From Clostridiales bacterium (lineage in GTDB: Bacteria > Bacillota > Proteinivoracia > UBA4975 > PWLI01), in assembly GCA_003559415.1 (NCBI GenBank), contig PWLI01000156.1, positions 1-39,617 of the forward strand: DNA of 39,617 bases, read 5' to 3'. How positions within the stretch are numbered: the first letter of the stretch is position 1; every line of letters begins with the position of its first letter. The notes under the pieces were generated by a model. That model worked only from the letters and a program-made list of their open reading frames with translations, searched no databases and had not been told where the DNA came from. Positions 1,642 through 17,918 of this stretch are shown here, one piece after another. The position numbers and the translations under genes were made by a program.

Positions 1642-3453
1642 ATGGAACTGAGCGAGAAGATAAAAACCATCCCCTCGGCCACGGGGGTATATGTGTTTAA
1701 AGATATTGAGGACCGGGTGCTCTATGTGGGCAAGGCCAAGAGCCTGCGCAGCCGGCTTAATTCATATTTCGGCAGCAATGCTCCGGACCCGAAAATACTG
1801 ATGTTGCGTCAGCAGGTTGCTGATGTGGACTATACAGTCACTGCCACCGAGGTGGAGGCGCTGCTGTTGGAGGGGCAGCTGATTAAAAAACACCGGCCCC
1901 GGTTTAATGTCATGCTTAAAGATGACAAGGACTATCCCTTTATCCGCCTCGATGTGACGGAAGAGTTCCCCCGCCTGGAAGTGGTGCGGAAGATGAAAAG
2001 GGACAAGGCCCGTTACTTCGGGCCCTATCCCAATGCCGGTGTGATAAATGAGACGCTGCGCCTGGCCAAAAAACTCTTTCCCCTGCGTTCCTGCAATGAC
2101 TGGCGGGGCAAGCGCCGGCCGTGCCTGAACTTTCATATCCGGCGCTGTGTGGCGCCCTGCAGCGGCAGGGTTTCGCCTGAAGATTACCGGCGCATTGTCG
2201 ACCAAGTCGTCCTCTTTCTTCAGGGCCGCCATCAACATCTGGAAAAACAGTTGCGCCAACAGATGGAAGATGCAGCCCGGAGCCAGCAATTTGAAGCCGC
2301 CGCGGAAATCCGCGACCAGCTGGATGCCCTGGGCAAGCTCACCGCCCGCCAGCGGATTGTTTCTGCCCAGACATGGAACCTGGATGTGTTGGCGGTGAGC
2401 ACCCAGGGGGAAATCGCTGCCGCCCAGCTGATGACTGTCAGAGGAGGCAAGGTGCTGGGCAATGAGTACTTCCGCTTTCGTTCCCAGCCTGCTGCTGACC
2501 CCCGGGAGATGGTAAGCGCCTTTGTCCGCGACCATTACCAGCGGGTGCCGGTGTTGCCCGGAGAAATACTGGTTGAAGCTATGCCCCCGGACAACCTGGC
2601 CCTGGAGTCATGGCTCAGCGAAAAACGGGGGGCTCCGGTTGTGTTGCGGATGCCCCAGCGGGGGCAGAAAAAGCAGTTGCTGGCGCTGGCCCGGGAAAAC
2701 CTGGTGGCCCACATGGACGCTGAGAACAAGGGGGAAGACTCCGCCGGCCCGGAACGCGAAACCCTGCTGGCCCAGGTTCAAGAGCTGCTGGGTCTGGAAG
2801 ATATCCCCTGGCGGATAGAGTGTTATGACATATCCCACATTCAGGGAAGTCAGACTGTAGCATCCATGGTGGTGTTTGAAAGGGGCCAGCCGCTGCGCAG
2901 GGCGTACCGCCGGTTTAAAATCAGGGAGCTCAATTCTCCCGATGATTTTGCAGCCATGGCCCAGGTTGTAAGCCGCCGGTTGGCTGCCCATTCTGAGGGA
3001 AGGGAAGGGTTTTCCACCCTGCCCCAGCTGATTGTCGTGGATGGCGGCAAGGGGCAGCTTTCAGCAGTTGCCGGCGTTCTTTCCCACAACAACTGTGGCG
3101 ATGTCGGCCTGGTTGCCCTGGCCAAACGAGATGAGGAGCTGTTTTTGCCCGGACACCAGCAGCCGCTGGTGTTGGAAAAAGGTGACCCTGCACTGCAGCT
3201 GCTGCAGAGAATCCGGGATGAGGCCCACCGCTTTGCGATTGCCTACCATCGCCGCCTGAGAGAAAAGGAAACTCTTGTGTCGGATCTGGACAGAGTCGCC
3301 GGTGTGGGCCCGGCCCGCCGCCGGGCGCTGCTGCAGGCTTTTGGCAGCATCGATCAGTTGCGGGAAAAGGATGCAGCAGAAATTGCTGCTGTACCGGGCA
3401 TACCCTGGTCTGTGGCAGAGGAAATATACCGCCACTTCCGCAAAAACAAGTGA
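1642..3453 (+). CDS. uvrC: Excinuclease ABC subunit C
   Basis: N-terminal GIY-YIG (GVYVFKD...YVGKAKSLRSRL), Cys cluster, UVR domain (FEAAAEIRDQ), RNaseH-like domain (IECYDISH, DGGKGQ, RDEAHRFAI), C-terminal HhH. Confidence 0.98.
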   Translation: MELSEKIKTIPSATGVYVFKDIEDRVLYVGKAKSLRSRLNSYFGSNAPDPKILMLRQQVADVDYTVTATEVEALLLEGQLIKKHRPRFNVMLKDDKDYPFIRLDVTEEFPRLEVVRKMKRDKARYFGPYPNAGVINETLRLAKKLFPLRSCNDWRGKRRPCLNFHIRRCVAPCSGRVSPEDYRRIVDQVVLFLQGRHQHLEKQLRQQMEDAARSQQFEAAAEIRDQLDALGKLTARQRIVSAQTWNLDVLAVSTQGEIAAAQLMTVRGGKVLGNEYFRFRSQPAADPREMVSAFVRDHYQRVPVLPGEILVEAMPPDNLALESWLSEKRGAPVVLRMPQRGQKKQLLALARENLVAHMDAENKGEDSAGPERETLLAQVQELLGLEDIPWRIECYDISHIQGSQTVASMVVFERGQPLRRAYRRFKIRELNSPDDFAAMAQVVSRRLAAHSEGREGFSTLPQLIVVDGGKGQLSAVAGVLSHNNCGDVGLVALAKRDEELFLPGHQQPLVLEKGDPALQLLQRIRDEAHRFAIAYHRRLREKETLVSDLDRVAGVGPARRRALLQAFGSIDQLREKDAAEIAAVPGIPWSVAEEIYRHFRKNK

Positions 3454-3478
3454 CACCGCTTTGGCGGTGTCATTTTTT
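3451..3478. terminator. Hairpin between convergent genes; probable terminator
   Basis: Perfect inverted repeat TGACACCGC-tttg-GCGGTGTCA followed by T6 on +. The two convergent TGA stop codons form the base of the stem. Confidence 0.8.
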
Positions 3479-4798
3479 AATAATGAAGTTTGGCAATGCG
3501 AAGCTTTCCACCACCGCCGCAATGGTGTTGTGGCGGCTGGCCCGGGTAAATATGCCTCGAAAGCGGTGATTATACATAAACAGCCCCAACATGAAATTGT
3601 AGTTCTCAAAATTCAGGGAACCGTCCTCCACTGTCAACATTTTTCGCCGGGGCAACAGACAGAATTGCTGAGCCAGGTATGATTCCCCGGTCCACCTGTT
3701 GACCAGCTGTTGCCACTGATCCTTGCTGCAGTCCTTGCCGATGAACACCCCGTGGGCGGCGAACTGGTCATCGGGTTTCAGCACCCAGCGGTCCTTTTCC
3801 TCAACCAGCCTGTCCAGAAATCCCTGGGGAGGAGAGTCGAGCATGACTGTATAGGGTATGTGACGGCCAATAAACGTTTTTTCTGCTTCTGTCAGGAAGG
3901 TCAGGTGTTGGGACATGTGCAATACAGCGAACAGTTTTTTGTTGTGTATAATCTGGGAAACCATGCCGCCGACAACGCAGACATATTGTTCCCGGTATGC
4001 TGTGATAAAGTCCGGTATTTCCTGGGCATAGTGAACAATCCTGGTGGTTGTGGCCCTGCGATAGACCAAGTCAATGGGGGTTGATTGATAATAGAGCTGC
4101 TTCCCCTTGAGTTTCAACTCCCGCAGGTCGCAAATCACTGTATGGTAGCCCCGGGCTTCAAAGCGGGAGCGAAAAACTTCAAATTCACTGGTTGTACCTT
4201 CGCCGGCAAAGTCCGCTATGGCGACGTTTGGTTGATCCGGGCCCCGCCCGCAGTTCCGGTAGTTGGCGATAATGGCCTCTATCCAGGTATCAAAGAGCTC
4301 AAAATCAGAGAAATCTTCCCGGCTTCCAAGTCCTGAAAGGGCCTGGGATGACCCAACTATGTTGTGCAGTTCCCGCACTTCGTTCATACCGGAAGAGCCG
4401 TCGGCGTTGAGCTCACAAAAACGGATATCCCTGTCATCCCGGTGGTAGAACAAGTCAAAACGGGCCATGGGAAAGGGCAGGGGGTAGCCGGGATCCATGA
4501 GCACCAGCTCTTCCATCAGCGGGGGAAATGCAAAGAGTTTGCGAAACTGGCTGTTCTGGCGGTACTGGGCCACAACTTTTTCCAGTATGCCGGCCAGGGT
4601 GTGGGCAATTCGCTCCAGCCGCTGGATGTCATCGGCGGCGAAGAACATGGGCTGGTAGAGAAAATCTATGGGCTTGTCTTTGTATATGGCTGTGGAGTTG
4701 GCAACGGCCTCCTTAACCCGGTGGTAATCATCAATGTACAAATCTGGGTTTGCCAGGACATTTTTTTCAAACTGATGGAAGTACTTGTTTGCCGGCAA
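3470..4798 (-). CDS. Circularly permuted ATP-grasp amide ligase (glutathionylspermidine synthase / eukaryotic glutathione synthetase-like fold)
   Basis: MARFDLF...FCELNADGSSG (RxD...ExN) lies N-terminal to IDLVYRR, HNKKLFAVL, WVLKP and YLAQQF. TTG start at 4798 follows AAAGGGGG, 4 nt after the upstream stop. Confidence 0.8.
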   Translation of the reverse strand: MPANKYFHQFEKNVLANPDLYIDDYHRVKEAVANSTAIYKDKPIDFLYQPMFFAADDIQRLERIAHTLAGILEKVVAQYRQNSQFRKLFAFPPLMEELVLMDPGYPLPFPMARFDLFYHRDDRDIRFCELNADGSSGMNEVRELHNIVGSSQALSGLGSREDFSDFELFDTWIEAIIANYRNCGRGPDQPNVAIADFAGEGTTSEFEVFRSRFEARGYHTVICDLRELKLKGKQLYYQSTPIDLVYRRATTTRIVHYAQEIPDFITAYREQYVCVVGGMVSQIIHNKKLFAVLHMSQHLTFLTEAEKTFIGRHIPYTVMLDSPPQGFLDRLVEEKDRWVLKPDDQFAAHGVFIGKDCSKDQWQQLVNRWTGESYLAQQFCLLPRRKMLTVEDGSLNFENYNFMLGLFMYNHRFRGIFTRASRHNTIAAVVESFALPNFIIKK

Positions 4799-4802
4799 TG
4801 GT

Positions 4803-6086
4803 TTACCCCCTTTCATTGTCCACCAGGCACCATTGCAGCGCTTCTGCATGTCCCAGGTGGAGCTGGTTCAGGGTGCGTTGCTTGGGCGTCATGCCCTGGT
4901 TGGCCAGCTCTTTCAATGGCGAGAGAAAGTGCTGTTCATCTGCCGGCAGCGCCCTCTCAGACATTTGCAGCATTTGTTTGAGGCTGTCCAGCACTGTTGC
5001 TCCGCCAACCACGGCATCCAGCCCGCCCTGGATTATTTGACGTTGCCGGTCCAACAGTGATTGCAAGTCATGGTGCTGAGCCTGGGAATAAAGCTCTTGC
5101 AAGTTGTGCTCATCGTAGAGCAACCCCTTCCACAAGGCGATGTAGCCCAGGCTGTGGGGCAAGGGCAGCGAGTCCCCCATGCGAATCTCCAGATAATTGC
5201 GCGCCCGCACATCCAAAAACTGCATGGACAAAACATGTTCCAGCTGTGCCTTATCCAGTTCATGCTGTGCCAGCAATTCTGCCATTGTTGCTTCCCCTGT
5301 GTATAAAAAGCCCTCCGGCGTGCGCAGAATGATGGGAGGGGTGTTGAGAACATGCCGGGCATAGTGTTCATAACTTTCAAGGGCAGTTATGCCGCACCTG
5401 TGGCAGTCACAATCGTTCCAAATCTTGTTGCGGATGCTGCCTCCCGGCCAGGGATTGGCTTCAAAGAAGGGGCTGTTGTCATAACAGGCATAGATCAGGG
5501 GGGTCAGGTAGTTGGCCACCTTCATCTTCTTCCCAAAATCCTCCTGGGTGTCAAAATCCATGCTGACCTGTATGGAAGCAGTTCCCTTCATCATGTTGTG
5601 GGCCAGCTTGCCCCGGCCAGCGAAATACCGGTACATGTACGTGTAGCGCTGCTTGGGCACCATGGGGATGTCGTCAATGGTGCTGCGGGGCTGGTAGCCC
5701 AGCGTTGCCAGCACCAGGCCGTTGTCTGCCAGGACACTATTGATTTCCTTTACAAAAATACGATAGAAATTTTCAATATCTGCCACCCGGGCCTGGGGGG
5801 TGAGACTTATTTCCACCTGGCCTCCCGGCTCCAGGGTTATGACGCCCCAGGGTTTGTGGAGCTGAACCAGGTGCTCGCCTTCGTATACCGGCTGCCAGCC
5901 CAGGGCCGTCATTTGTTTCAGACTGCTTTCCACACCTGGCGAGGCAAAGAAGGAAACTGCCTCCAGGCTGTGTTTTTTTAATATAAAGTGTTCTATTTCC
6001 ACACCCAGGGAAAATTGTTCCCGGGGTGTCTCTGCCTTTTGTATATAGCTTGCAATTGTCTCAACGGCCTGGGTGTAGGTGCTCAT
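4803..6086 (-). CDS. gshA: Glutamate-cysteine ligase, GCS2 family (plant/alphaproteobacterial GshA- or EgtA-like)
   Basis: GVEIEHF, ITLEPGGQVEIS, VPKQRY, MMKGTASIQVSMDF, NSPF and YLEIRMGDS motifs. ATG 6086 follows GGAGGGAG. Confidence 0.85.
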   Translation of the reverse strand: MSTYTQAVETIASYIQKAETPREQFSLGVEIEHFILKKHSLEAVSFFASPGVESSLKQMTALGWQPVYEGEHLVQLHKPWGVITLEPGGQVEISLTPQARVADIENFYRIFVKEINSVLADNGLVLATLGYQPRSTIDDIPMVPKQRYTYMYRYFAGRGKLAHNMMKGTASIQVSMDFDTQEDFGKKMKVANYLTPLIYACYDNSPFFEANPWPGGSIRNKIWNDCDCHRCGITALESYEHYARHVLNTPPIILRTPEGFLYTGEATMAELLAQHELDKAQLEHVLSMQFLDVRARNYLEIRMGDSLPLPHSLGYIALWKGLLYDEHNLQELYSQAQHHDLQSLLDRQRQIIQGGLDAVVGGATVLDSLKQMLQMSERALPADEQHFLSPLKELANQGMTPKQRTLNQLHLGHAEALQWCLVDNERG

Positions 6087-6113
6087 GTTGTCGCTCCCTC
6101 CTGTCATGACTAC

Positions 6114-6119
6114 ATTATA
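6114..6119 (-). promoter_or_regulatory. -10 element (TATAAT) for the gshA/ATP-grasp operon
   Basis: TATAAT on the minus strand about 12 nt upstream of the RBS; the -35 region is poor (ATGCAG). Confidence 0.55.
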
Positions 6120-6266: not shown

Positions 6267-6316
6267 GGCACTAAAGAACACTATCTGATTTATTGACTTG
6301 GGAAAGGAGTGTAGAC

Positions 6317-6700
6317 ATGCGCAATCAAATGTTGGGCCGCTGCCCGGTGTGCAACTCCGGGTTGGAGGTAACCAAGCTTCATTGTCCCCATTGTGACACC
6401 GGCATCGAAGGCCGCTTTCAAATCTGCAAGTTTTGTCAGCTTCCCCCCGACCAGAAGGCTTTTGTAGAAGTTTTTATCAAGAGCCGGGGCAACATCAAAG
6501 AGGTGGAAAAAGAGCTGGGTATTTCCTACCCCACAGTAAGAAGCCGGCTGGAAGCAGTTATCGAATCCTTGGGCTATAAGCCTCAGCCAGTGCCCAAGGA
6601 TGATCCTGAGGCCAAGGAAAAACGCAAGACAATTTTGGAAGACCTGAACAGTGGCAAGATAAGCTCAGAAGAAGCCATTGCCAAGCTTCGTGATCTGTAG
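6317..6700 (+). CDS. DUF2089-family protein (Zn ribbon + HTH + C-terminal SHOCT-like motif); putative transcriptional regulator
   Basis: CPVC...CPHC...IEGRF; FIKSRGNIKEVEKELGISYPTVRSRL HTH; terminal ILEDLNSGKISSEEAIAKL. ATG 6317 follows AAAGGAG. Confidence 0.88.
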   Translation: MRNQMLGRCPVCNSGLEVTKLHCPHCDTGIEGRFQICKFCQLPPDQKAFVEVFIKSRGNIKEVEKELGISYPTVRSRLEAVIESLGYKPQPVPKDDPEAKEKRKTILEDLNSGKISSEEAIAKLRDL

Positions 6701-6729
6701 AAGGGGTTTCTGGGAAAGGAGGGTGTCTG

Positions 6730-7761
6730 ATGACTGACGAAAAGAAAATGATTCTTGATATGCTCAGCCAGGGGAAAATAACTGCCGAAGAAGCACAAAA
6801 CCTGCTGGAAGCCCTGCCTCAGCAGCCGGAAACCAGTCAGGACACTCAGCGCGATGCCACCGGCAAGACTAAGGAAGCACCCCAGTCAATCATGGGGGGT
6901 ATAATGGAATCCATTCGCAGCGGGTTTTCTGGAATCGACTTCTCAGATTTTTCTGTAGAGTTTTCCGACTCCAGCCGCATAACGCTGGAAGAAAGCCATA
7001 GCGGGCAATTTGACAGTCAGCAAGTGGAGCTGGATTTGCAAGCCCGCAACGGCAGCATCAGGGTGGAAAGCTGGGAACAGCCTGAGTATAAGCTGGATGT
7101 AATCAAGCGTGTCAAAGCTGCCACCCGGGAGCAGGCTGAAGATTTGGCTGCCCAGTATTCCTTTGCAAAAATTGCCGGTGACAAACTGCGTGCCGGTGAT
7201 CAGGAATCCAAGAAAAACGGCAAGCGCATCAACGTATCTCTGCGCCTGCGTCTGCCCAAGGGCCACAGCTACACTGGCCTGGTCAAGACAATGAATGGCA
7301 GCATTGACATTTCCGGTTTGGATGTAGACCAATTGGAGATCAGCTCCATGAATGGTTCTGTTAAGTTGGAAGATATCCGGGGCAATGACCTGCAGGCCAA
7401 GACAGTAAATGGCAGCCTGCGCTTGGAAGGCAGCCTGGATTCCGTTTCAGGAAACACCACCAACGGCAGTATTTCACTGTCAAACTTTGCCGAAGACAGC
7501 GAGAATCACTTGGGCACAGTTAACGGTAAAATTGTTGCCAGAGTCCCCGCCCGCAACGATGTGGGCATCAGCGTTCTGGCCAACACCACCTCGGGCTCCA
7601 TAAAAGTATATCACACAAAACTGGAAGGGCTGGAGTCTGAACGAAAGGTGGCATCCCGGAGGTTGGAAGGCCAATCCTCCAACTGGGACCGGGCGACCCA
7701 TCAGGTTGATTTACACCTGAAGTCGGTAAACGGCAGCATCAGAATTGACGATTTGGATTAA
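6730..7761 (+). CDS. YvlB/LiaX-like protein: N-terminal SHOCT-like motif + DUF4097 (toast-rack) beta-strand repeats
   Basis: EKKMILDMLSQGKITAEEAQNLLEAL at the N-terminus; eight xxxNGSIxL-type repeats; no signal peptide. AAGGAGGG RBS. Confidence 0.85.
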   Translation: MTDEKKMILDMLSQGKITAEEAQNLLEALPQQPETSQDTQRDATGKTKEAPQSIMGGIMESIRSGFSGIDFSDFSVEFSDSSRITLEESHSGQFDSQQVELDLQARNGSIRVESWEQPEYKLDVIKRVKAATREQAEDLAAQYSFAKIAGDKLRAGDQESKKNGKRINVSLRLRLPKGHSYTGLVKTMNGSIDISGLDVDQLEISSMNGSVKLEDIRGNDLQAKTVNGSLRLEGSLDSVSGNTTNGSISLSNFAEDSENHLGTVNGKIVARVPARNDVGISVLANTTSGSIKVYHTKLEGLESERKVASRRLEGQSSNWDRATHQVDLHLKSVNGSIRIDDLD

Positions 7762-7775
7762 AAGGAGGGCTTACA

Positions 7776-8129
7776 GTGGATTGGATTAAAGAGGTTGTCG
7801 TTACCCCTGGATTTGCGCTTGGTGTAGGAGCTTTATTTTTGGTGTTGATTATCAGCTACCATGTGCGACAAATGGCGCTGATCAAGACCGGCTTGATAAA
7901 GAAACCTCTGGCCCGGGTGTGGATGGTGGATTTTGACCGTTTGCGCAGCGGCCTGTGGCTGGCAGCCTTGGGTGGCGTAATTGCAGCAACCATTCGTTAT
8001 GACGATTTTGGCGGTTGGCTCGCCTTTTGGACCCTGGTTGGCCTGTTCGGTGTGGGACAGGTGTTGGCAAGCCTCCTGGGCCGTGACCGCTGGCGCACCA
8101 AGGTTCGCCGCGTCCGGCACTACGATTAG
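7776..8129 (+). CDS. Small 3-TM membrane protein (resembles DUF6249)
   Basis: AAGGAGGG RBS before GTG. TM helix, then RQMALIKTG, then LRSGLW and two more TM helices, with a basic C-terminal tail. Confidence 0.7.
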   Translation: MDWIKEVVVTPGFALGVGALFLVLIISYHVRQMALIKTGLIKKPLARVWMVDFDRLRSGLWLAALGGVIAATIRYDDFGGWLAFWTLVGLFGVGQVLASLLGRDRWRTKVRRVRHYD

Positions 8130-8138
8130 GTGGTTGCC

Positions 8139-9158
8139 ATGAGTCAGGCTTTTGAACAAACGCTGGCGTGCGGCTTTCATCCCCGGGTAAAGGTGGATGT
8201 GAACACAGGAAAGGTTTTTGTCCGCAGCTGGGAAGGTGACGATGTCAAAATATCTGCTGAGGGCGCAGAGCCTGATGTAAACAGCAGCGGCGACCGGATA
8301 GTGATTCGCACTGAACAGCATTGCCAGTTGTCACTGTACCTGCCGCGCAACTGTGACCTGACAGTTGACGGCGGCAACATGGAAATAGATGCGGCCGGCA
8401 TTTCCGGAACCTGCAACATAGACATATGCGATGGCTCGGTTTCCCTTTGCCAATGGCAGGGAAATGTGAATATCGACACCGCCCATGGAAATGTGCGTCT
8501 GGAACAGGTTGAAGGTAACCTGGAAGTTGATACTTCCGGCGGCTCTGTGGAGGCAACGGCCTGCCAGGGCAGCCTGAGCGCCGACACCGGTGCCGGCGCT
8601 GTGACGGTTACAGACTGTCGGCTGTCACTTTCGCTGGACACCGGCAGCGGCGATGTTTCCGTCTCCCGGCAGCAAGGAGCGGTTGCCATTGACTGTGCCA
8701 GCGGTGCTGTTGAAATCCTTTCCGTCAGCAGCCACAACCTCCTGGCGGAAAGCGGCACAGGTGATATTACCGCCCAGCTTCCCGGAGGCAATCTGGGACG
8801 GTGGCGGCTGCGGTCTGGCAACGACATAAAACTGGCCGTTCCGGCAAATATCTCGGCCCGCTTTACTTTGTCGGCGGGACATATTGATGCAGATTCCCTG
8901 GAGCTGGACAACCTTCATCAAAAGGGCAATCGCGTCAGTGGCACCCTCAGTGACGGCAACGGCCGGGTCGATGTCAGGGCCAGGGGCGGCATATTCGCCC
9001 AGCAAGCAGGGCCCGATGTCACCATCGACATCGCTCAACCGACGGAAACAGAAGAGGAAACCATCAAGATCTTAACCATGGTTGAACAGGGTACAATCAG
9101 CATTGAAGAGGCTGAAAAGCTGATAGACGCCCTGACTGGAGGTGGAATTGATGAGTGA
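8139..9158 (+). CDS. DUF4097 beta-strand repeat protein with C-terminal SHOCT-like motif
   Basis: Repeats of about 18 aa (DTAHGNV, DTSGGSV, DTGAGAV, DTGSGDV, DCASGAV, ESGTGDI); terminal ETIKILTMVEQGTISIEEAEKLIDAL. ATG 8139 follows AGGTGG. Confidence 0.82.
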   Translation: MSQAFEQTLACGFHPRVKVDVNTGKVFVRSWEGDDVKISAEGAEPDVNSSGDRIVIRTEQHCQLSLYLPRNCDLTVDGGNMEIDAAGISGTCNIDICDGSVSLCQWQGNVNIDTAHGNVRLEQVEGNLEVDTSGGSVEATACQGSLSADTGAGAVTVTDCRLSLSLDTGSGDVSVSRQQGAVAIDCASGAVEILSVSSHNLLAESGTGDITAQLPGGNLGRWRLRSGNDIKLAVPANISARFTLSAGHIDADSLELDNLHQKGNRVSGTLSDGNGRVDVRARGGIFAQQAGPDVTIDIAQPTETEEETIKILTMVEQGTISIEEAEKLIDALTGGGIDE

Positions 9159-9501
9159 TGAGCGGATTAAAATACTGAACATGATTGCCGAAGGCAAGAT
9201 ATCCCCGGAGGAAGGATCAAATCTCCTCAAAGCGCTGGAGCCCGATGAGCCACCCCGGCAAGGAGCAGTTCGCTGGTTGATAATCCGGGTCTACGAGCAG
9301 GGTTCCAATAAAGTACAAGCCAACATTCGTTTGCCTGTGCGCCTGGCTGGAAAACTGATGAAGTTTTCCAACCGGTTTGTGAATGAATCGGATATCGACT
9401 TGGAAGAAATCTATGCAGCCATTGCCCAAGGAGAACCGGGCAAGGTTATGGAAGTCTACACCGACGACGATACCCGGGTCGAAATATATTTGGAAGGGTG
9501 A
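9151..9501 (+). CDS. SHOCT-like domain protein (N-terminal motif + small alpha/beta domain)
   Basis: ERIKILNMIAEGKISPEEGSNLLKAL, then WLIIRV...VQANIRLP. GGAGG RBS; overlaps the upstream stop. Confidence 0.82.
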   Translation: MSDERIKILNMIAEGKISPEEGSNLLKALEPDEPPRQGAVRWLIIRVYEQGSNKVQANIRLPVRLAGKLMKFSNRFVNESDIDLEEIYAAIAQGEPGKVMEVYTDDDTRVEIYLEG

Positions 9502-9507
9502 TCTGCT

Positions 9508-9906
9508 GTGGAAGAACGGGTAAAGGTTTTGGAGATGGTTCGCGACGGCAAGGTCACTCCCCAAGAGGCTCAGGAATTGCTTTCACTGTTGGAAAACAGG
9601 GAACAAGCGCCTCAACGGATGCTGGAGAATTTCGTTGACCTGCACGATGACGACCAGCTGCCCGCCCGTAATTTGAAGATTACCAGTCTGTCTGAAAAAG
9701 ACGGCAAGCCTCGTAAAACTTCATTTAACCTGCCCCTGGGCATGCTGCGTTTTATCAATGGCCTTTTCCCCGGCTCAACGGTAATCGGAGTGAACAGCAA
9801 GTACCTGGACAGGGATCAACTTATGGATATGATTCACAAGGGTGAGAAGGGCGTTATCTACCGGGAAGAAACGGAAAAGGGCGGCGTGATAATTGAACTG
9901 ATATAG
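9508..9906 (+). CDS. SHOCT-like domain protein, paralogue of the 9151 gene
   Basis: ERVKVLEMVRDGKVTPQEAQELLSLL, then LKIT...SFNLPL...LDRDQLMDMIHKGEKG, the same architecture as the upstream gene. Confidence 0.8.
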   Translation: MEERVKVLEMVRDGKVTPQEAQELLSLLENREQAPQRMLENFVDLHDDDQLPARNLKITSLSEKDGKPRKTSFNLPLGMLRFINGLFPGSTVIGVNSKYLDRDQLMDMIHKGEKGVIYREETEKGGVIIELI

Positions 9907-9984: not shown

Positions 9985-10006
9985 TTACTTTTCAGGGGTG
10001 AGGTTA

Positions 10007-10357
10007 ATGGTATTTATAATTCGCATGGCGCTAAATGGATTGGCGCTGTGGGCTGTTGCAACGTTGTTGAGAGGTATCACCCTGGCAACTGTCGAAGATA
10101 TTATACTGGCCACCCTGGTTTGGGGTGTGTTCAACGGCCTGTTGCGGCCGGTGCTGAGAGTACTGACATTGCCTGTAAACATTATGACACTGGGCCTCTT
10201 TGGCCTGGCATTAAACGGGATGTTGTTTTGGTCCGTTTCGGCACTGGTGCGCGGGTTTGTGATAGACAGCTTTCTTTGGGCCCTGGCAGGGGTTGTGCTG
10301 ACAACTTTTATTTCTTCGTTGTTGGCCATGTTGCTGGGTGTGAGAAGAAGGCGCTGA
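10007..10357 (+). CDS. YvlD/DUF360-type 4-TM phage-holin-family membrane protein
   Basis: NGLLRPVLRVLTLPVNIMTLGLFGLALNG...GFVIDSFLWAL signature. ATG 10007 follows GGTGAGG. Confidence 0.88.
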   Translation: MVFIIRMALNGLALWAVATLLRGITLATVEDIILATLVWGVFNGLLRPVLRVLTLPVNIMTLGLFGLALNGMLFWSVSALVRGFVIDSFLWALAGVVLTTFISSLLAMLLGVRRRR

Positions 10358-10918: not shown

Positions 10919-13327
10919 ATGTTGCGGAAAGAATTAATGTTGAAAAAAGATGAGCTGCGAAGGGTTTGTGATGGTTCGGCCTTTGCCTTTGAGACCACGG
11001 AAGATGTCAAGGAGGCGGCCCATATACTGGGACAATCCCGGGCGGTGCGGGCCATGGAGTTTGGCCTGGAAATAGCCAGGCCGGGATACAATATTTTTAT
11101 GGTTGGCCACAGTGGCACCGGACGCACCACCTATGCCAAAAAAGCGGTTAGAAACAAGGCAAGGGACGAGCAAACTCCTGCCGACTGGTGCTATGTCTAC
11201 AACTTTGAAGATCCCAGCCAGCCCCGGGCGCTGACACTGGCAGGCGGCAAGGGCCGGGAATTCAAGTGTGATGTGGAAGAGCTGGAAAAAACGCTGAAAG
11301 AAGAAATACCCAAGGCCTTTGACGGTAACGAATACGAGCGGCAAAAGGCAGACATACTCAAAGAGTTCCAGGCCACACGGTCTCAATTGCTGGAGCAGTT
11401 GAACAAAAAGGCCGAAAAACGAGGTTTTGCCCTTAAAACAACCAACGCCGGATTCCTGACGGTGCCGATTGTTGACGGCAAGGAGCTGCCGCAAAAGGAG
11501 TTTGCCAAGCTGGACGCCAAAAAGCGGCAAAAAATCGAAGAGAGCTCCCGGGAATTGCGGGTGGAGGCGGCAGAGATAATGCGCAAGGTGGGCCAGCAGG
11601 AGCGCCAGGCCCGGGAAAAGATTCGGGAGTTGGACCAAAGCATCGGCCTGTCGGTTGTGGGACATTTGATTGAAGATTTACAGGAAAAGTACAAAGAAAA
11701 TACCGCAGTCGTCAAATACCTGACTGCTTTTAAAGAAGACATCCTGGACAACCTGCAGGAGTTCAAGTCCGCTGACAAAAAGGAGAAGCAACAAAACCCC
11801 TTGGCCATGCTGGCTGCCCGCCGCCGGCCCGACAACCGCTATGCGGTTAACCTGCTGGTGGACAATGGTGCTGCCGATGGGGCTCCTGTGGTGGTGGAGA
11901 CCAACCCGACCTGGTACAACTTGCTGGGCAGGGTTGAATATCAGAATCAAATGGGCAGTTTTGTCACCGACTTTACCCGGATAAAATCGGGGGCATTCCA
12001 TCGGGCCAATGGCGGTTACCTGATTATAAATGTCATGGACCTGCTGACCAACCCCCTGGCCTGGCACGCCCTTAAAAGAGTGCTGAAAAACCGGGAAGTA
12101 AGGGTGGAGAGCATCGGCGACCAACAATCTGCCTTGGCGCTGTCCACACTGCGCCCCCAACCCATCCCCCTTCGCGTCAAGGTTGTCCTCATCGGCAATC
12201 CCCAGATTTACCAGATGCTTTATCACATGGATGAGGATTTTAAAAAGCTGTTCAAGGTAAAGGTTGACTTCAACGACGATGTGGACCGCAACGCCGAAAC
12301 TGAAGAACAGCTGGCCTGGTTTATTGCCGGGCAATGCCGCAGAGAGGGGTTGCGCCACTTCCACCGCGATGCGGTGGCCCGGGCAGTGGAGTACAGTTCC
12401 CGCCTGGCTGACAGCCAACGCCGGTTGAGCACCCACTTCAATGAGCTGGGCGAGTTGGTATACGAAGCCGATGCCTGGGCCAAGTCCCGGGAATCTGATG
12501 TTGTGGAACAACAAGATGTGGACAAGGCGGTCACTGAAAAGGTGATGCGCTCCAACCGGCTGCAGGAGTACCGTCAACGGCTTGTAAAAGAGGGCAAGTT
12601 GCTGCTTACCACCCAGGGCGAAGCAGTAGGCCAGATAAACGGCCTCTCTGTGTTGTCCACCGGCGACTATCGATTTGGCATTCCCAGCCGGATTACTGCC
12701 AATACCTTCGCCGGCCGGGGTGGGATTATCAACATTGAACGGGAAATTCAACTGAGCGGACAGATTCACAGCAAGGGAGTGCTGACGTTGTCGGGCTACC
12801 TGGGCCAGATGTTTGCTCGCCGTCACCCCCTGGCGCTGTCGGCAAGCATTACCTTTGAACAGCTTTACAGCGGGGTGGAAGGGGACAGTGCATCCAGCGC
12901 CGAACTCTTCGCCCTGATATCCAGCCTCGCCTCTGTCCCCCTGGATCAGTCCGTTGCTGTTACCGGCTCGGTGAACCAAAAGGGAGAGATCCAGCCAGTG
13001 GGCGGTGTGAATGAAAAGATTGAAGGTTTTTTCGCCGCCTGCAAGCTCCAGGGCTTGACCGGCAACCAGGGCGTTATCATCCCTGACAGCAACAAGTGTG
13101 ACCTGATGCTTGACCAGGAAGTGGTGGATGCTGTAAAGGGTGGCACATTCCACGTTTACTCAATCAGCCGGGTGGAAGAGGGCCTGGAAATACTCTCGGG
13201 CATCGCTGCCGGCCAGGCAGATGATCAGGGGAAATTTGACGACGACAGCGTGTTTGGCAAAGTCCAGCAGCGGCTGGAGGAATTCCACCGCCAGCAGCAA
13301 CAACGCTCAGATGAAGATAAAAAATAG
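10919..13327 (+). CDS. Lon-like protease, LonC/YcbZ type (AAA-like module + coiled coil + S16 protease domain)
   Basis: GQSRAV, GHSGTGRTT, DWCYVYNFEDP, GAFHRANGGYL; Ser-Lys dyad in EGDSASSAE and GGVNEKIEGF. Confidence 0.92.
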   Translation: MLRKELMLKKDELRRVCDGSAFAFETTEDVKEAAHILGQSRAVRAMEFGLEIARPGYNIFMVGHSGTGRTTYAKKAVRNKARDEQTPADWCYVYNFEDPSQPRALTLAGGKGREFKCDVEELEKTLKEEIPKAFDGNEYERQKADILKEFQATRSQLLEQLNKKAEKRGFALKTTNAGFLTVPIVDGKELPQKEFAKLDAKKRQKIEESSRELRVEAAEIMRKVGQQERQAREKIRELDQSIGLSVVGHLIEDLQEKYKENTAVVKYLTAFKEDILDNLQEFKSADKKEKQQNPLAMLAARRRPDNRYAVNLLVDNGAADGAPVVVETNPTWYNLLGRVEYQNQMGSFVTDFTRIKSGAFHRANGGYLIINVMDLLTNPLAWHALKRVLKNREVRVESIGDQQSALALSTLRPQPIPLRVKVVLIGNPQIYQMLYHMDEDFKKLFKVKVDFNDDVDRNAETEEQLAWFIAGQCRREGLRHFHRDAVARAVEYSSRLADSQRRLSTHFNELGELVYEADAWAKSRESDVVEQQDVDKAVTEKVMRSNRLQEYRQRLVKEGKLLLTTQGEAVGQINGLSVLSTGDYRFGIPSRITANTFAGRGGIINIEREIQLSGQIHSKGVLTLSGYLGQMFARRHPLALSASITFEQLYSGVEGDSASSAELFALISSLASVPLDQSVAVTGSVNQKGEIQPVGGVNEKIEGFFAACKLQGLTGNQGVIIPDSNKCDLMLDQEVVDAVKGGTFHVYSISRVEEGLEILSGIAAGQADDQGKFDDDSVFGKVQQRLEEFHRQQQQRSDEDKK

Positions 13328-14301: not shown

Positions 14302-15234
14302 ATGGAAAAGGAAATTCGCGATGTTGTAATAATCGGTGGCGGCCCTGCGGGCATGGCTGCCGGGTTATACGCCAGCCGGGCATTGTTGGATACGGTAATC
14401 GTTGAATCCAAGGGGCCCGGTGGGCAAATGGCCCAGACTCATGAGATTGAAAACTATCCAGGGTTTGTCCAACCCGTTGCAGGGGCAGAGCTGGTTCAGG
14501 CTATGTTGGATCAGGCCAAGCGGTTTGGCCTGTCTGTGGAAACGGGCACCGTTGAGCAGTTGGATCTGTCGGGAGATATCAAGACAGTTCACACTTCTTC
14601 CGGTGTTGTTAAGGCAAAAGCGCTTATCCTGGCCACAGGCGTCGAACCCAAAAGGCTGGGAGTGCCCGGGGAGCAGGAGTATACAGGCAGGGGTGTTTCC
14701 TATTGCGCCACCTGTGATGGTGCCTTCTTCCGGGGCAAAAAAGTGGCCGTTGTCGGTGGTGGCGACACCGCCGTCAAGGAAGCGCTGTTCCTTACCCGTT
14801 TTGCCAGGGAAGTGGTGTTGATTCATCGTCGTGATCAGCTGCGGTCTGAACATATTCAGCGGCAACGGTTGCTGAACAGCAAAACCATTTCACCTCGCTG
14901 GTTTCACGTTGTTCATGAAATTAAGGGCGATGGCAAGCGTGTGGATGGTGTGATTGTGGAAAATATCCAGAGCGGCAGCATCAGCCCCCTTGCCTTGGAC
15001 GGTGTGTTTGTGTTTATCGGACGAACCCCCGTTGGCCCCCTGGCCGACAGCGGCCTGGAGCTGGACAAAGAGGGTTTTGTCATCACCGATGAGAGCATGG
15101 CCACCAATATCCCCGGAGTTTTTGCTGCCGGCGATGTTCGCAGCAAAAAATGGAGGCAGATTGTGACTGCTACTGCTGAGGGATCTGTGGCAGCGTTGGA
15201 AGCTGCTGAATACATTGAAAACTACAAGGAGTGA
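14302..15234 (+). CDS. trxB: Thioredoxin-disulfide reductase
   Basis: GGGPAG FAD motif, GRGVSYCATCDG, GGGDTA...HRRD NADPH motif, TNIPGVFAAGDV. Confidence 0.97.
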   Translation: MEKEIRDVVIIGGGPAGMAAGLYASRALLDTVIVESKGPGGQMAQTHEIENYPGFVQPVAGAELVQAMLDQAKRFGLSVETGTVEQLDLSGDIKTVHTSSGVVKAKALILATGVEPKRLGVPGEQEYTGRGVSYCATCDGAFFRGKKVAVVGGGDTAVKEALFLTRFAREVVLIHRRDQLRSEHIQRQRLLNSKTISPRWFHVVHEIKGDGKRVDGVIVENIQSGSISPLALDGVFVFIGRTPVGPLADSGLELDKEGFVITDESMATNIPGVFAAGDVRSKKWRQIVTATAEGSVAALEAAEYIENYKE

Positions 15235-15240
15235 TTAACA

Positions 15241-15558
15241 ATGGTTAAACAAGTTACTTCATCCCAGTTCAAGCAAGAGGTGTTGGATTCGGAACAACCG
15301 GTGCTGGTGGACTTTTGGGCAGAGTGGTGCGGCCCCTGCCGCATGGTGGCTCCGGTGCTGGAAGAGCTGTCCGGCGAGATGGAAGGCCAGTTGAAAGTGG
15401 TAAAAGTCAATGTGGATGAAGAATCTTCCCTGGCCGGGGAATATGGAATTATGAGCATCCCCACCATGATGTTGTTCAAAGATGGTGAAAGCGTTGCCAC
15501 AATGGTGGGCTTTTCGCCGAAACAAGAGCTGATTGAAAAACTTAAACCCCATCTCTAA
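15241..15558 (+). CDS. trxA: Thioredoxin
   Basis: [11 protein letters not shown] and SIPT motifs; 105 aa. Confidence 0.98.
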
Positions 15559-15581
15559 ACCGGGAGCATCCCGGTTTTTTT
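15557..15581 (+). terminator. Rho-independent terminator
   Basis: AAACCGGGA-gca-TCCCGGTTT continuing into a T run. Confidence 0.85.
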
Positions 15582-15610
15582 GACACTTTTTTGCACTGGA
15601 GAGCGTCTAA
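15581..15610 (+). promoter_or_regulatory. Possible ECF-sigma promoter for the DegV gene
   Basis: TGACAC-T tract, 17 bp-CGTCTAA, resembling the TGAAAC...CGTC pattern of Bacillus ECF promoters. Confidence 0.35.
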
Positions 15611-15638
15611 CCTACAGCAAGACAAAGGGGGGCTATCT

Positions 15639-16508
15639 GTGGCAAAAATTGCAGTTGTAGTTGATTCCGGTCTGGACATTCCGGCCCAGCTTTTGGAGCA
15701 ACACAAAATCGCCCAAGTTCCCGTGTTGGTTCACTGGCGGGGCAAACAGTACAGAGACAAAGTTGACCTTGGACTGGAGGAGTTGTTTGACGGCATTGCT
15801 GCCGGTGAACCATTTCCCACCACTTCCCAACCGTCTCCCGGTGAGTTCATTGAGGTGTATGAACCATTGCTGGACCAAATGGGGGATGAAGGGCTTATTT
15901 TGTCTTTCCACCTGGGTTCTTCCTTTAGCGGGACCTATGCCAGCGCCTGTTCCGCTGCGGCCATGATGCCGGCGGGCAGTGTTGAGGTTATAGACACCCA
16001 GTCGCTGAGCATGGGGGGAGGGTGGCAGGCACTGGCTGCAGCCAAGACATTGCAAGCCGGAGGAAGTGCTGTGGATGCAATCAGCATCGCCACTGAAATC
16101 AAAAAAAATACCGGTGTAAAACTGATATTGGACACTCTGGACTTTGTCCGCAGGGGAGGCAGAATCAGTTACCTGCAGGGCTTGCTGGGGTCGATGCTTA
16201 ACATTAAGCCCCTGCTGGAGGTAAGGGATGGAAAACTGTCCAGTGGCAAGAAGACAAGAAGCCGCAGGCAATCGCTGGACATGTTGCTGGATGAAGTTGT
16301 GGCAGATTGCCGGACAGAGGATGGCCGGGGCATGCACTTGGCCGTTGGCCATGCCCGGGCAGAAGAGGATCGGCAATGGCTGATGGAGCAGCTGACCCAA
16401 CGCCTGCCGGCTGCCCGGCAACTTCCCTTTGAGGTGGGCGTGGGCATTGGCACCCACGGTGGCCCGGGAGTGGTCGGCGTTTGCTATTACCAACAATCAG
16501 GGAACTAA
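15639..16508 (+). CDS. DegV/FakB-family fatty-acid-binding protein
   Basis: KIAVVVDS, PTTSQPSPGEF, SGTYASA, DTQSLS, RRGGRIS, LNIKPLL, HGGPG. GTG 15639 follows AAAGGGGG. Confidence 0.95.
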   Translation: MAKIAVVVDSGLDIPAQLLEQHKIAQVPVLVHWRGKQYRDKVDLGLEELFDGIAAGEPFPTTSQPSPGEFIEVYEPLLDQMGDEGLILSFHLGSSFSGTYASACSAAAMMPAGSVEVIDTQSLSMGGGWQALAAAKTLQAGGSAVDAISIATEIKKNTGVKLILDTLDFVRRGGRISYLQGLLGSMLNIKPLLEVRDGKLSSGKKTRSRRQSLDMLLDEVVADCRTEDGRGMHLAVGHARAEEDRQWLMEQLTQRLPAARQLPFEVGVGIGTHGGPGVVGVCYYQQSGN

Positions 16509-16529
16509 CCGCCTGCCGGCGGTTTTTTT
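16507..16529 (+). terminator. Rho-independent terminator
   Basis: AACCGCC-tgcc-GGCGGTT followed by a T run. Confidence 0.85.
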
Positions 16530-16531
16530 AT

Positions 16532-16559
16532 GCAGGAATAGCCCCGGCGGCAGAGAAAT
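16532..16559 (+). promoter_or_regulatory. sigmaH-like promoter
   Basis: GCAGGA-17 bp-GAAAT right after a terminator. Confidence 0.4.
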
Positions 16560-16589
16560 AAACTGTATAACCTAACCGAGGTGATGGAT

Positions 16590-17918
16590 GTGAAGTTTTT
16601 AATCGTCGGGGGCAACGCAGCAGGCATGTCTGCTGCCTCCAAAATAAGCCGCATGTTGCCAGAAGCGGACATAACGGTGCTGGAGCAAAGCAACGATATT
16701 TCCTATGGAAATTGTGGTTTCCCTTACTATTTTGGCGGCCTGGTGGAGAGCCTGGATGGCCTCTATGCCCGACGGCTGCCGCGGTTCAAAGAAATGGGTA
16801 TCAATGTGCTGCTCAGCCACAAAGCCAAGTCCATTGACAGAGATAAGCAACAGGTGCTTGCCGTCAACCCCCAGGGTGAAGTAACATTCAACTATGACCG
16901 TCTGATTTTGGCTACTGGTGCATCACCTGCCGTACCGCCAGTGCCGGGCATGGACCTGGGCAATGTTTTTGTTTTGCGCACCATGCAGGACGCCCGGGAC
17001 ATTGATGGTTCACTGTCGCGGGCGAAACAAATATGTGTGGTGGGTGGAGGATACATAGGCCTGGAAATGGCAGAAAACTTTTCCCTGCGGGGGTTGGATG
17101 TGACTGTGGTTCAGCGCAGCAACCTGTTGCCGGCCCTGGATGAATCCTTGTCCGCCCTGGTGGAAAAAGAGCTGGTCGACCATGGTGTGAAAGTAAAGAC
17201 CGGCCATCAATTGATGGGTATAGAAGGTCAAACAAGGGCTGAAAAGATTATCACCGACAAGGGCTCTTTTCCCGCTGACCTTGTGTTGGTGGCAACAGGA
17301 GTCAAGCCCAACTCCCAGCTGGCCGTTGAGGCTGGCCTGGAAACGACGGCAGAAGGTGCAATTGTTGTGGATGAGTTTCTTGCCACATCGGACAAAAACA
17401 TCTTTGCTGCCGGCGACTGTGCACGCAACTGGCACCGGGTGTCCCAAGGGTGGTCATGGTTGCCGCTGGGTGATACAGCCAACAAAATGGGCCGAACGGC
17501 GGCAGTCAATGCTGCTGGCGACAAACAGCCTTTCCCCGGTGTAGTTGGCACTGCCGCAGTTAAGGTCTTTGATCTCAATGTGGGCCACACCGGCTTTGGC
17601 CTTAGCCAGGCAAAGGAATTTTTCCCCGATGCCAGGGCAATCGAAATAACTGCCCCCGACCGTCCCGGGTACTACCCCGGCAGAGGCCGTGTCACGTGTC
17701 GCCTAATCTTTCTGCCTTCCGGCAAATTGGTCGGCGCCCAGGCGGCGGGCTCTCCGGCAGCGGTGGAAGCGGTGAATATCTGTTCCCTGGCTCTGGGCTT
17801 GGAGGCCGACGTAGAAGACCTGGCAGCAATGGATTTGGCATATGCGCCGCCCTACAGTCCGGTATGGCATTTGTTGTTAATTGCCGCCGGCAGGGCTGTG
17901 ACAGAGATGGAAAGCTAG
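16590..17918 (+). CDS. CoA-disulfide reductase / NADH oxidase-family flavoprotein
   Basis: GGNAAG FAD motif, single redox Cys in SYGNCG, GGGYIGLE, C-terminal DLAYAPPYS (CoADR-like). Start uncertain between 16581 and 16590. Confidence 0.88.
   Translation: MKFLIVGGNAAGMSAASKISRMLPEADITVLEQSNDISYGNCGFPYYFGGLVESLDGLYARRLPRFKEMGINVLLSHKAKSIDRDKQQVLAVNPQGEVTFNYDRLILATGASPAVPPVPGMDLGNVFVLRTMQDARDIDGSLSRAKQICVVGGGYIGLEMAENFSLRGLDVTVVQRSNLLPALDESLSALVEKELVDHGVKVKTGHQLMGIEGQTRAEKIITDKGSFPADLVLVATGVKPNSQLAVEAGLETTAEGAIVVDEFLATSDKNIFAAGDCARNWHRVSQGWSWLPLGDTANKMGRTAAVNAAGDKQPFPGVVGTAAVKVFDLNVGHTGFGLSQAKEFFPDARAIEITAPDRPGYYPGRGRVTCRLIFLPSGKLVGAQAAGSPAAVEAVNICSLALGLEADVEDLAAMDLAYAPPYSPVWHLLLIAAGRAVTEMES

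Follow-up and report, generated by a model that had tools for sequence, protein, structure and literature searches.

A GCS2-family ligase gene is followed by an ATP-grasp ligase gene

We analyzed a 39,617 nt stretch of DNA from an organism labelled Clostridiales bacterium (contig PWLI01000156.1, positions 1 to 39,617 of the forward strand, assembly GCA_003559415.1), hereafter the window, and focused on two genes on its minus strand. The upstream gene (4803..6086) encodes a 427-residue protein of the GCS2 family that resembles plant-type glutamate-cysteine ligase (GCL), as read from its open reading frame (ORF) and from matches to Pfam and TIGR01436. The downstream gene (3470..4798) encodes a 442-residue circularly permuted ATP-grasp ligase, recognized by its ORF, motifs and fold, and is a candidate for a second step acting on gamma-glutamyl-cysteine (gamma-Glu-Cys). 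The pair lies between uvrA and uvrC on one side and the genes from 6293 onward on the other, all of which are on the plus strand. Taken with the gene linkage described below, these features suggest that the product of the two-gene operon is probably glutathione or a closely related thiol, formed by a bacterial route not previously described.

The start codon of the GCS2 gene was assigned to ATG 6086-6084, which has the Shine-Dalgarno sequence GGAGGG 9 nt ahead of it (6096..6101, minus strand); no ribosome-binding site of this kind precedes ATG 6107, from which a longer ORF could be read. Since the stop codon TAA of this gene occupies 4805-4803, the two genes are 4 nt apart. The ATP-grasp gene starts with TTG 4798-4796, in agreement with the database protein (P0001, 442 residues) and with the N-termini of homologues, and its Shine-Dalgarno sequence AAGGGGG (4806..4812, minus strand) is contained within the 3´ end of the GCS2 gene. 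The 7-nt spacer between this sequence and TTG 4798 suggests that the two genes are probably translationally coupled.

The 4-nt distance and the orientation opposite to the uvrC backbone had both been described in a first reading of the letters alone (the original prediction), and both held. That reading also gave the pair its own -10 element and terminator, for which the agreement was partial. A perfect TATAAT hexamer is present at 6114..6119 (minus strand, reading 6119-6114), with no matching -35 hexamer, and, as this position was not among the hits of a two-hexamer promoter scan (2 sites in the whole region vs 2.0 expected), this candidate -10 element is a hexamer match only. Likewise, a terminator-like 9-bp GC-rich hairpin with a T-run was seen at 3441..3472 (minus strand; read in the sequence at 3472-3451), where it overlaps the stop codon of the ATP-grasp gene and separates the pair from the convergent uvrC gene, which ends at 3453. 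The terminator scan of the region found 5 terminator-like sites vs 4.5 expected, so the hairpin is telling by its position only. A scan of the upstream DNA for Rfam elements, which covered the window and 11 of the 80 loci described below, detected none.

The GCS2 protein resembles plant-type glutamate-cysteine ligase

The GCS2-family motifs noted in the first gene by the original prediction were matched by a Pfam GCS2 (PF04107) score of 105.4 bits, compared to a gathering threshold of 21. The model for plant-type and alphaproteobacterial glutamate-cysteine ligase (GSH1; TIGR01436) aligned over its full length (model positions 6-438 of 446) with 211 bits, which is under the equivalog cut-off of 463, and the EgtA model (TIGR03444) gave 106 bits, also under its cut-off of 370.8. 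The best solved relatives are the plant GCL structures 2gwc, 6gmo and 9ufc (E 1e-35), which share all motif blocks at an identity of ~25-30%, estimated by eye from the alignment. On the basis of its sequence, the protein is related to plant-type glutamate-cysteine ligase distantly but over its full length, and full-length alignment with retained motif blocks is also what it has in common with EgtA. The setting differs from that of EgtA: no egtB or egtD gene is near the GCS2 gene, and the Pfam annotation, which covered the window and not the rest of the genome, contained no EgtB- or EgtD-like gene, as had been anticipated for the egt genes.

Characterized plant GCL and EgtA both yield gamma-Glu-Cys. 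Because the protein falls under both equivalog cut-offs, we infer, rather than assign, its specificity for cysteine. These scores are also compatible with a pathway that does not lead to a thiol, in which the amine used by the GCS2 protein would not be cysteine, the carboxylate would be glutamate or a different one, and the ATP-grasp protein would extend the product to a gamma-glutamyl peptide or a compatible solute. The nearest characterized relatives of the GCS2 protein being makers of gamma-Glu-Cys argues against such a pathway, which we return to with the evidence from gene neighborhoods and gene fusions.

The ATP-grasp protein has a circularly permuted fold

In the ATP-grasp protein, the original prediction had placed an RxD...ExN metal motif ahead of the WVLKP and YLAQQF motifs. 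We found this order, with R113-F-D115, E129-L-N131, WVLKP at 338-342 and YLAQQF at 374-379 (442-residue numbering). The residues expected to bind ATP and Mg (R113, D115, E129, N131, K287, K341 and D344) are all invariant across 34 homologues, as are Y374, Q377, R247, R248, R419 and E205, and P342 is conserved in at least 90% of them.

Profile comparison left the protein outside the curated families. Its best Pfam match, GSP_synth (PF03738), scored 26.5 bits (E 4.5e-6) with a threshold of 29.3, and CP_ATPgrasp_2 (PF14403) scored 19.2 bits with a threshold of 32; many homologues do have a precomputed GSP_synth domain, and public annotation calls them "glutathionylspermidine synthase family protein" or "circularly permuted type 2 ATP-grasp protein". 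None of the NCBIfam models, GshB TIGR01380 included, matched the protein, and the Pfam families of eukaryotic glutathione synthetase (PF03917/PF03199) gave no match at E up to 0.1. A profile search of Protein Data Bank (PDB) sequences returned weak local matches to fungal Cp1B (9cjn, 1.4e-5) and YgiC (0.025). Consistent with the predicted lack of a CHAP amidase domain, Pfam detected none in the protein, and the alignment to E. coli GspS was limited to GspS residues 217-605.

We therefore turned to structure. An AlphaFold model built from 34 homologues (predicted local distance difference test score 91, predicted template modelling score 0.92) was compared to solved structures by Foldseek, for which the top matches were the human, potato, soybean and yeast glutathione or homoglutathione synthetases (E ~1e-18 to 1e-16, TM 0.6-0.73; for the human, potato and yeast enzymes E ~1e-18 and TM 0.69-0.73), with 3n6x, YgiC, GspS, Cp1B and trypanothione synthetase close behind. 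In VIA, an independent fold comparison with representative structures, YgiC scored Z 31.3, GspS 28.9, 3n6x 28.5, Cp1B 27.1 and the glutathione synthetase-type proteins 26-28, while bacterial GshB reached only Z 9.2 and was matched in the ATP-grasp core alone. Because of the difference between Z 26-31 and Z 9, the model places the protein with eukaryotic glutathione synthetase and GspS in the circularly permuted ATP-grasp superfamily, which is the type of ligase the original prediction had preferred over GshB. Within this superfamily the modeled protein is roughly equidistant from the characterized branches.

Comparison with the individual branches points to both likenesses and differences. Eukaryotic glutathione synthetase (human 2hgs, yeast 1m0w, potato 5oes) has the same permuted fold and would occupy the same pathway slot, after a glutamate-cysteine ligase; however, the identity is 12-15%, there is no PF03917 match, and KPxDxxAxxGV is found in the ATP-grasp protein where the eukaryotic enzyme presumably has the Gly-rich loop GGGNN. 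E. coli GspS, trypanothione synthetase and the orphans YgiC and YjfC resemble the protein in fold (Z 26.7-31.3) and in the RxD and ExNAD(S/G)xS motifs, with GSP_synth as the nearest Pfam family, but the CHAP amidase domain is missing here, and the gene in the window does not stand alone but is linked to a glutamate-cysteine ligase gene. For fungal Cp1B, from the E-64 pathway, the likeness extends beyond the fold (Z 27) and the best PDB profile match to the loop LKPxxxxxxxG(I/V)xxGxDxxxxEW, though it is without a glutamate-cysteine ligase partner; the Cp1B pathway is reported to condense epoxysuccinate with an amino acid (PMC12568646). Finally, bacterial GshB has ATP-grasp chemistry and occupies the same pathway step, but it is not circularly permuted, and no match to TIGR01380 or PF02955 was found.

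The position of YgiC as the best VIA match (Z 31.3) speaks for an alternative in which gamma-Glu-Cys would itself be the final thiol, as in haloarchaea, and the ATP-grasp protein would modify a protein or peptide or carry out a YgiC/YjfC-like reaction, with the gene linkage reflecting co-regulation only. The distribution and the fusions of the two genes, presented next, bear on this possibility.

The two genes are linked in many anaerobic bacteria

A profile search with the ATP-grasp protein detected at least 574 relatives among one-genome-per-species contigs from several phyla, and the best 80 loci were analyzed. Going by their database labels, the carriers belong to the Halanaerobiales, the Tissierellales, other Clostridia and the Peptococcaceae, and include metagenome-assembled genomes (MAGs) labelled Cloacimonadota, Bipolaricaulota and Thermotogae; among the carriers available in culture are Halothermothrix orenii, Tissierella praeacuta and Clostridium aceticum. 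In 69 of the 80 loci, the ATP-grasp gene is immediately preceded by a GCS2 gene of the same orientation, at gaps of -8 to 225 nt. For the remaining 11, two loci end before the upstream DNA, six genomes have GCS2 elsewhere, Formimonas has a GshA-type gene, and two Bipolaricaulota MAGs had no glutamate-cysteine ligase that we could find.

A second sample of 401 genomes, drawn evenly from the phylum, gave the same picture. ATP-grasp matches were found in 28 genomes, GCS2 in 34 and both in 24, and in 24/24 of the latter the genes are adjacent with GCS2 first. Some glutamate-cysteine ligase is encoded in 27/28 genomes with an ATP-grasp match compared to 16/373 without one; in the one remaining genome, the match is to a fragment located at the end of a contig. 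The linkage of the pair in other genomes, on which the original prediction depended, was thus seen in both surveys. That the ATP-grasp gene almost never occurs without a glutamate-cysteine ligase gene argues against an ATP-grasp reaction unrelated to gamma-Glu-Cys.

GCS2 without the ATP-grasp gene was confined, among the 401 genomes, to one fragmented copy and to a separate subfamily (23-28% identity) that is present in all nine genomes sampled from a single family. A representative of this GCS2-like subfamily (L096:3539-4780, G020:C9) is ~415 residues long, has no Pfam match at E 0.01 and has no ATP-grasp partner; in G020, the one locus examined, it adjoins the housekeeping genes NFACT, der, plsY and gpsA.

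The neighbor survey of the 80 loci found no third gene conserved with the pair and no peptidase partner, the commonest neighbor family being an ABC ATPase (15/80). Other neighbors are limited to particular lineages, among them TrkAH (10 loci) and an AI-2E transporter (5 loci). A CDF cation-efflux gene is immediately upstream of GCS2, overlapping it or less than 40 nt away, in seven loci of Tissierellales type (L079, L081 with the gene at 3491-4717, L085, L061, L086, L087 and one more), which hints that a thiol product could be tied to metal handling. The ion-transport neighbors (CDF 7/80, TrkAH 10/80 loci) also fit production of a compatible solute or other non-thiol compound, as does the origin of many carriers from saline or alkaline habitats according to their database labels.

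Two further neighbors were observed in small groups of loci. In four, a metallo-beta-lactamase-fold protein of ~210 residues is encoded immediately upstream of GCS2 (L057:3953-4624, L069:3983-4621, L080:4035-4670 and L083:4033-4665); its best NCBIfam match is the hydroxyacylglutathione hydrolase GloB, at 92-98 bits vs a cut-off of 200.8 and in the core domain only. In three Halanaerobiales loci, an acylphosphatase gene is located 6-24 nt after the ATP-grasp gene (L013:7302-7592, L016:7320-7613 and L018:7341-7631). ATP-grasp enzymes proceed via acylphosphate intermediates.

Two unrelated ligase families precede or are fused to the ATP-grasp family

The pair also occurs as single proteins. Fusion P0122 (867 residues, five member sequences) has a GCS2 part at 17-416 with 30% identity to the GCS2 protein of the window and an ATP-grasp part at 444-854 with 33% identity, and fusion P0121 (839 residues) has a Pfam GCS2 domain at 51-311 and covers 94% of the ATP-grasp protein at 37% identity.

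In other genomes the GCS2 protein is replaced. In Formimonas (L047), where no GCS2 was found in the genome, a GshA gene is two genes away from the ATP-grasp gene and its product scores 405 bits with TIGR01434, above the equivalog cut-off of 393. Genome G282 combines the ATP-grasp gene with an unlinked GshA-type gene, and again GCS2 was not found. Genome G100 encodes an 841-residue protein in which the N-terminal domain is of GshA/GshF type (PF04262 172 bits; NF002688 212 bits) and is joined to a C-terminal domain of the ATP-grasp family, which is 27% identical to the ATP-grasp protein of the window (E 6e-48) and scores 242 bits with the family profile. Immediately after this fusion gene (L093:1573-5425, G100:C107) is a stand-alone second ATP-grasp paralogue of 454 residues, so that two ATP-grasp modules follow one ligase, and these may carry out two different additions.

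An arrangement of another kind was seen in G178, where an 826-residue protein (L094:1626-4106, G178:C15), encoded near a class-V aminotransferase gene, is built from a tandem pair of circularly permuted ATP-grasp/GSP_synth modules; this genome also has a 775-residue GshF-like ORF.

The occurrence of GCS2- and GshA-type ligases before, or fused to, one ATP-grasp family is the strongest argument for a gamma-Glu-Cys intermediate. Because two unrelated families of gamma-Glu-Cys ligases are found in this position, the GCS2 protein would make gamma-Glu-Cys and the ATP-grasp protein would use it. The replacement, in one case by a ligase above the TIGR01434 equivalog cut-off, argues against a non-thiol product, which we consider improbable in spite of the GCS2 scores, the ion-transport neighbors and the saline habitats. 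Similarly, since the ATP-grasp family is covalently fused to two different ligase families, the two proteins would be expected to act in consecutive steps on one metabolite. We accordingly regard it as very unlikely that gamma-Glu-Cys is the end product next to a merely co-regulated, YgiC-like enzyme, even though that alternative accounts for the fold match and for the failure to find glutathione-specific enzymes (see below).

The arrangement is reminiscent of GshF (GshAB) of Streptococcus, Listeria and others, in which a glutamate-cysteine ligase is joined to an ATP-grasp ligase, particularly as fused relatives of the pair exist. Here, however, there are two genes instead of one polypeptide, and the ligase is of GCS2 type rather than GshA type. 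The ATP-grasp domain of GshF is conventional and not circularly permuted.

Canonical GshB, glutathione reductase and GloB are not found above cut-off in the carriers

Canonical GshB, which would provide the second step, was not found in the carriers: TIGR01380 was over its cut-off in 0/50 carrier genomes, with a best score of 51 bits vs 299. The genome from which the window derives (1.5 Mb, 94.75% complete) has no match to PF02955 (GshB), PF03917 or PF04262 (GshA-type), and no BshC match. Because of gene adjacency, the fusions, the replacement by GshA and the lack of canonical GshB in carriers, the ATP-grasp protein is most likely the enzyme of the second step acting on gamma-Glu-Cys.

Genes for the use of glutathione were also sought. 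Glutathione reductase (TIGR01421) and GloB (TIGR03413) were over their cut-offs in 0/54 carriers each, and the genome of the window has no glutaredoxin, GSHPx or gamma-glutamyl transpeptidase match. Since neither the canonical reductase nor GloB was detected in these carriers, a novel thiol stays plausible. This alternative shares the pathway but not the product: the acceptor would be another amino acid or amine, and anaerobic bacteria, many of them halophiles or alkaliphiles, would have a new low-molecular-weight thiol. The evidence from linkage, fusion and replacement applies to it equally, the ATP-grasp protein is in no curated family and is not closer to genuine glutathione synthetases than it is to GspS, YgiC or Cp1B, and the second stand-alone paralogue in G100 hints at differing specificities. 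On the other hand, classical glutathione-using enzymes may simply be absent from anaerobes, and to our knowledge every characterized enzyme behind or fused to glutamate-cysteine ligase (GshB, GshF and eukaryotic glutathione synthetase) uses glycine. We consider a different acceptor unlikely, though clearly less so than a non-thiol product or gamma-Glu-Cys as the end product.

Some information on the acceptor comes from GspS. An acidic cluster (D387/D389/E391/E392) is described as lining the spermidine pocket of the E. coli enzyme (PMC6272389). These four residues align to a loop of the ATP-grasp protein that is two residues shorter and not conserved, with only a variable Glu. Although the hhalign alignment was full-length, its probability was only 10%, and the evidence from the pocket is weak for this reason. 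As the pocket appears not to be conserved, a polyamine acceptor is weakly disfavored, which also bears on acceptors other than glycine. The change in the loop, together with the invariant R247, R248, R419 and E205, gives weak pointers to an amino acid over a polyamine as the acceptor.

Several candidate markers were rejected. Glutaredoxin-domain ORFs are present in 52/54 carriers, but they are unspecific as a sign of glutathione, being found in 13/14 control genomes whatever their thiol, and the GST_N_3 matches that might be taken for true glutathione S-transferases are the same ~80-residue glutaredoxin-like ORFs. In several carriers, many of the glutaredoxin-domain ORFs (~80-120 residues) have a single in-frame TGA and are probably selenoprotein glutaredoxin-like. 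A MerA-like FAD disulfide reductase (L090:4079-5437, G000:C85) was considered as the reductase of the product, but no orthologue tracks the pair, and all matches in 40 relatives are at most 40% identical. This protein scores 447 bits with MerA, vs a cut-off of 454, lacks the metal-binding domain and is encoded inside a glycine-betaine ABC transporter cluster.

Other genes in the window

Directly across from the promoter region of the pair is a row of five genes on the plus strand (6293-9906). One product is a DUF2089 zinc-ribbon/helix-turn-helix protein, two are DUF4097 "toastrack" proteins and the other two are small; a SHOCT-like DUF2089-C domain occurs in four of these five proteins. A holin-like protein with four transmembrane segments is encoded after them (9998-10357). 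A gene for a LonC/LonB-like AAA protease of 802 residues (10919-13327) comes after a NUDIX hydrolase gene. At ~8 kb from the pair is a redox cluster (14302-17918) with thioredoxin reductase (TIGR01292, 371 bits), thioredoxin, DegV and a flavoprotein resembling CoA-disulfide reductase (389 bits, under the cut-off of 579).

Discussion

We propose that the operon directs the two-step, ATP-dependent making of a thiol based on gamma-Glu-Cys. In the first step, the GCS2 enzyme would join glutamate and cysteine to give gamma-Glu-Cys. In the second, the ATP-grasp enzyme would phosphorylate the cysteine carboxylate of gamma-Glu-Cys and pass the acyl group to an amine acceptor; with glycine, which we take to be the most likely acceptor, it would be a class of bacterial glutathione synthetase not characterized before. 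We infer cysteine as the substrate of the first step, gamma-Glu-Cys as that of the second and the identity of the acceptor. A general pathway of this type, from gamma-Glu-Cys to a product gamma-Glu-Cys-X, appears likely to us. The original prediction had the pair make gamma-Glu-Cys and then add glycine, another amino acid or a polyamine, and adjacency, fusions, GshA replacement, the lack of GshB and the fold all support it. Glycine as X, and hence glutathione as the product, is a possibility to which we give rather less than an even chance. Taken as a whole, a gamma-Glu-Cys route with a glycine-adding ATP-grasp enzyme is the best explanation we have for the data, although our confidence in it falls just short of even.

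A number of observations weigh against a glutathione pathway. The GCS2 protein is under the equivalog cut-offs of both plant GCL (211 vs 463 bits) and EgtA, the ATP-grasp protein is under every curated family threshold, and its fold lies equally near to the glutathione synthetases and to YgiC, GspS and Cp1B, none of which makes glutathione. The low hhalign probability limits what can be drawn from GspS, and the related genomes that were counted are kin and not independent samples. Glutathione reductase and GloB, as noted, were over cut-off in none of the 54 carriers, and the genome of the window had no match to the glutathione-using families sought. Finally, a full-text literature search found no biochemical data for any member of the family and no paper on the pairing of GCS2 with this ATP-grasp protein.

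The logic of the proposed pathway is that of GshA with GshB, of GshF or of the eukaryotic route, and the new part would be the second enzyme, which falls outside GshB, outside the Pfam families of eukaryotic glutathione synthetase and, by threshold, outside GSP_synth and CP_ATPgrasp_2. If this enzyme is a glutathione synthetase, a ligase would have been recruited to that step independently once more, and a bacterial relative of the eukaryotic enzyme would bear on the origin of eukaryotic glutathione synthetase. We think it less probable, but still a serious prospect, that the ATP-grasp protein founds a new enzyme class whose product, in strict anaerobes of several phyla, is a gamma-Glu-Cys-X thiol other than glutathione. 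Such a thiol would be a new entry on the short list of major cellular thiols and a new redox cofactor.

Strictly anaerobic Firmicutes are usually described as being without glutathione, and for most of them it is not known which low-molecular-weight thiol predominates. The pair is widespread, and it is also common: it is present in 24 of the 401 genomes sampled from the phylum, against only nine with GshA/GshF-type genes. The widespread annotation "glutathionylspermidine synthase family protein" would need correcting, and a product other than glutathione would provide a thiol system for organisms in which none is known.

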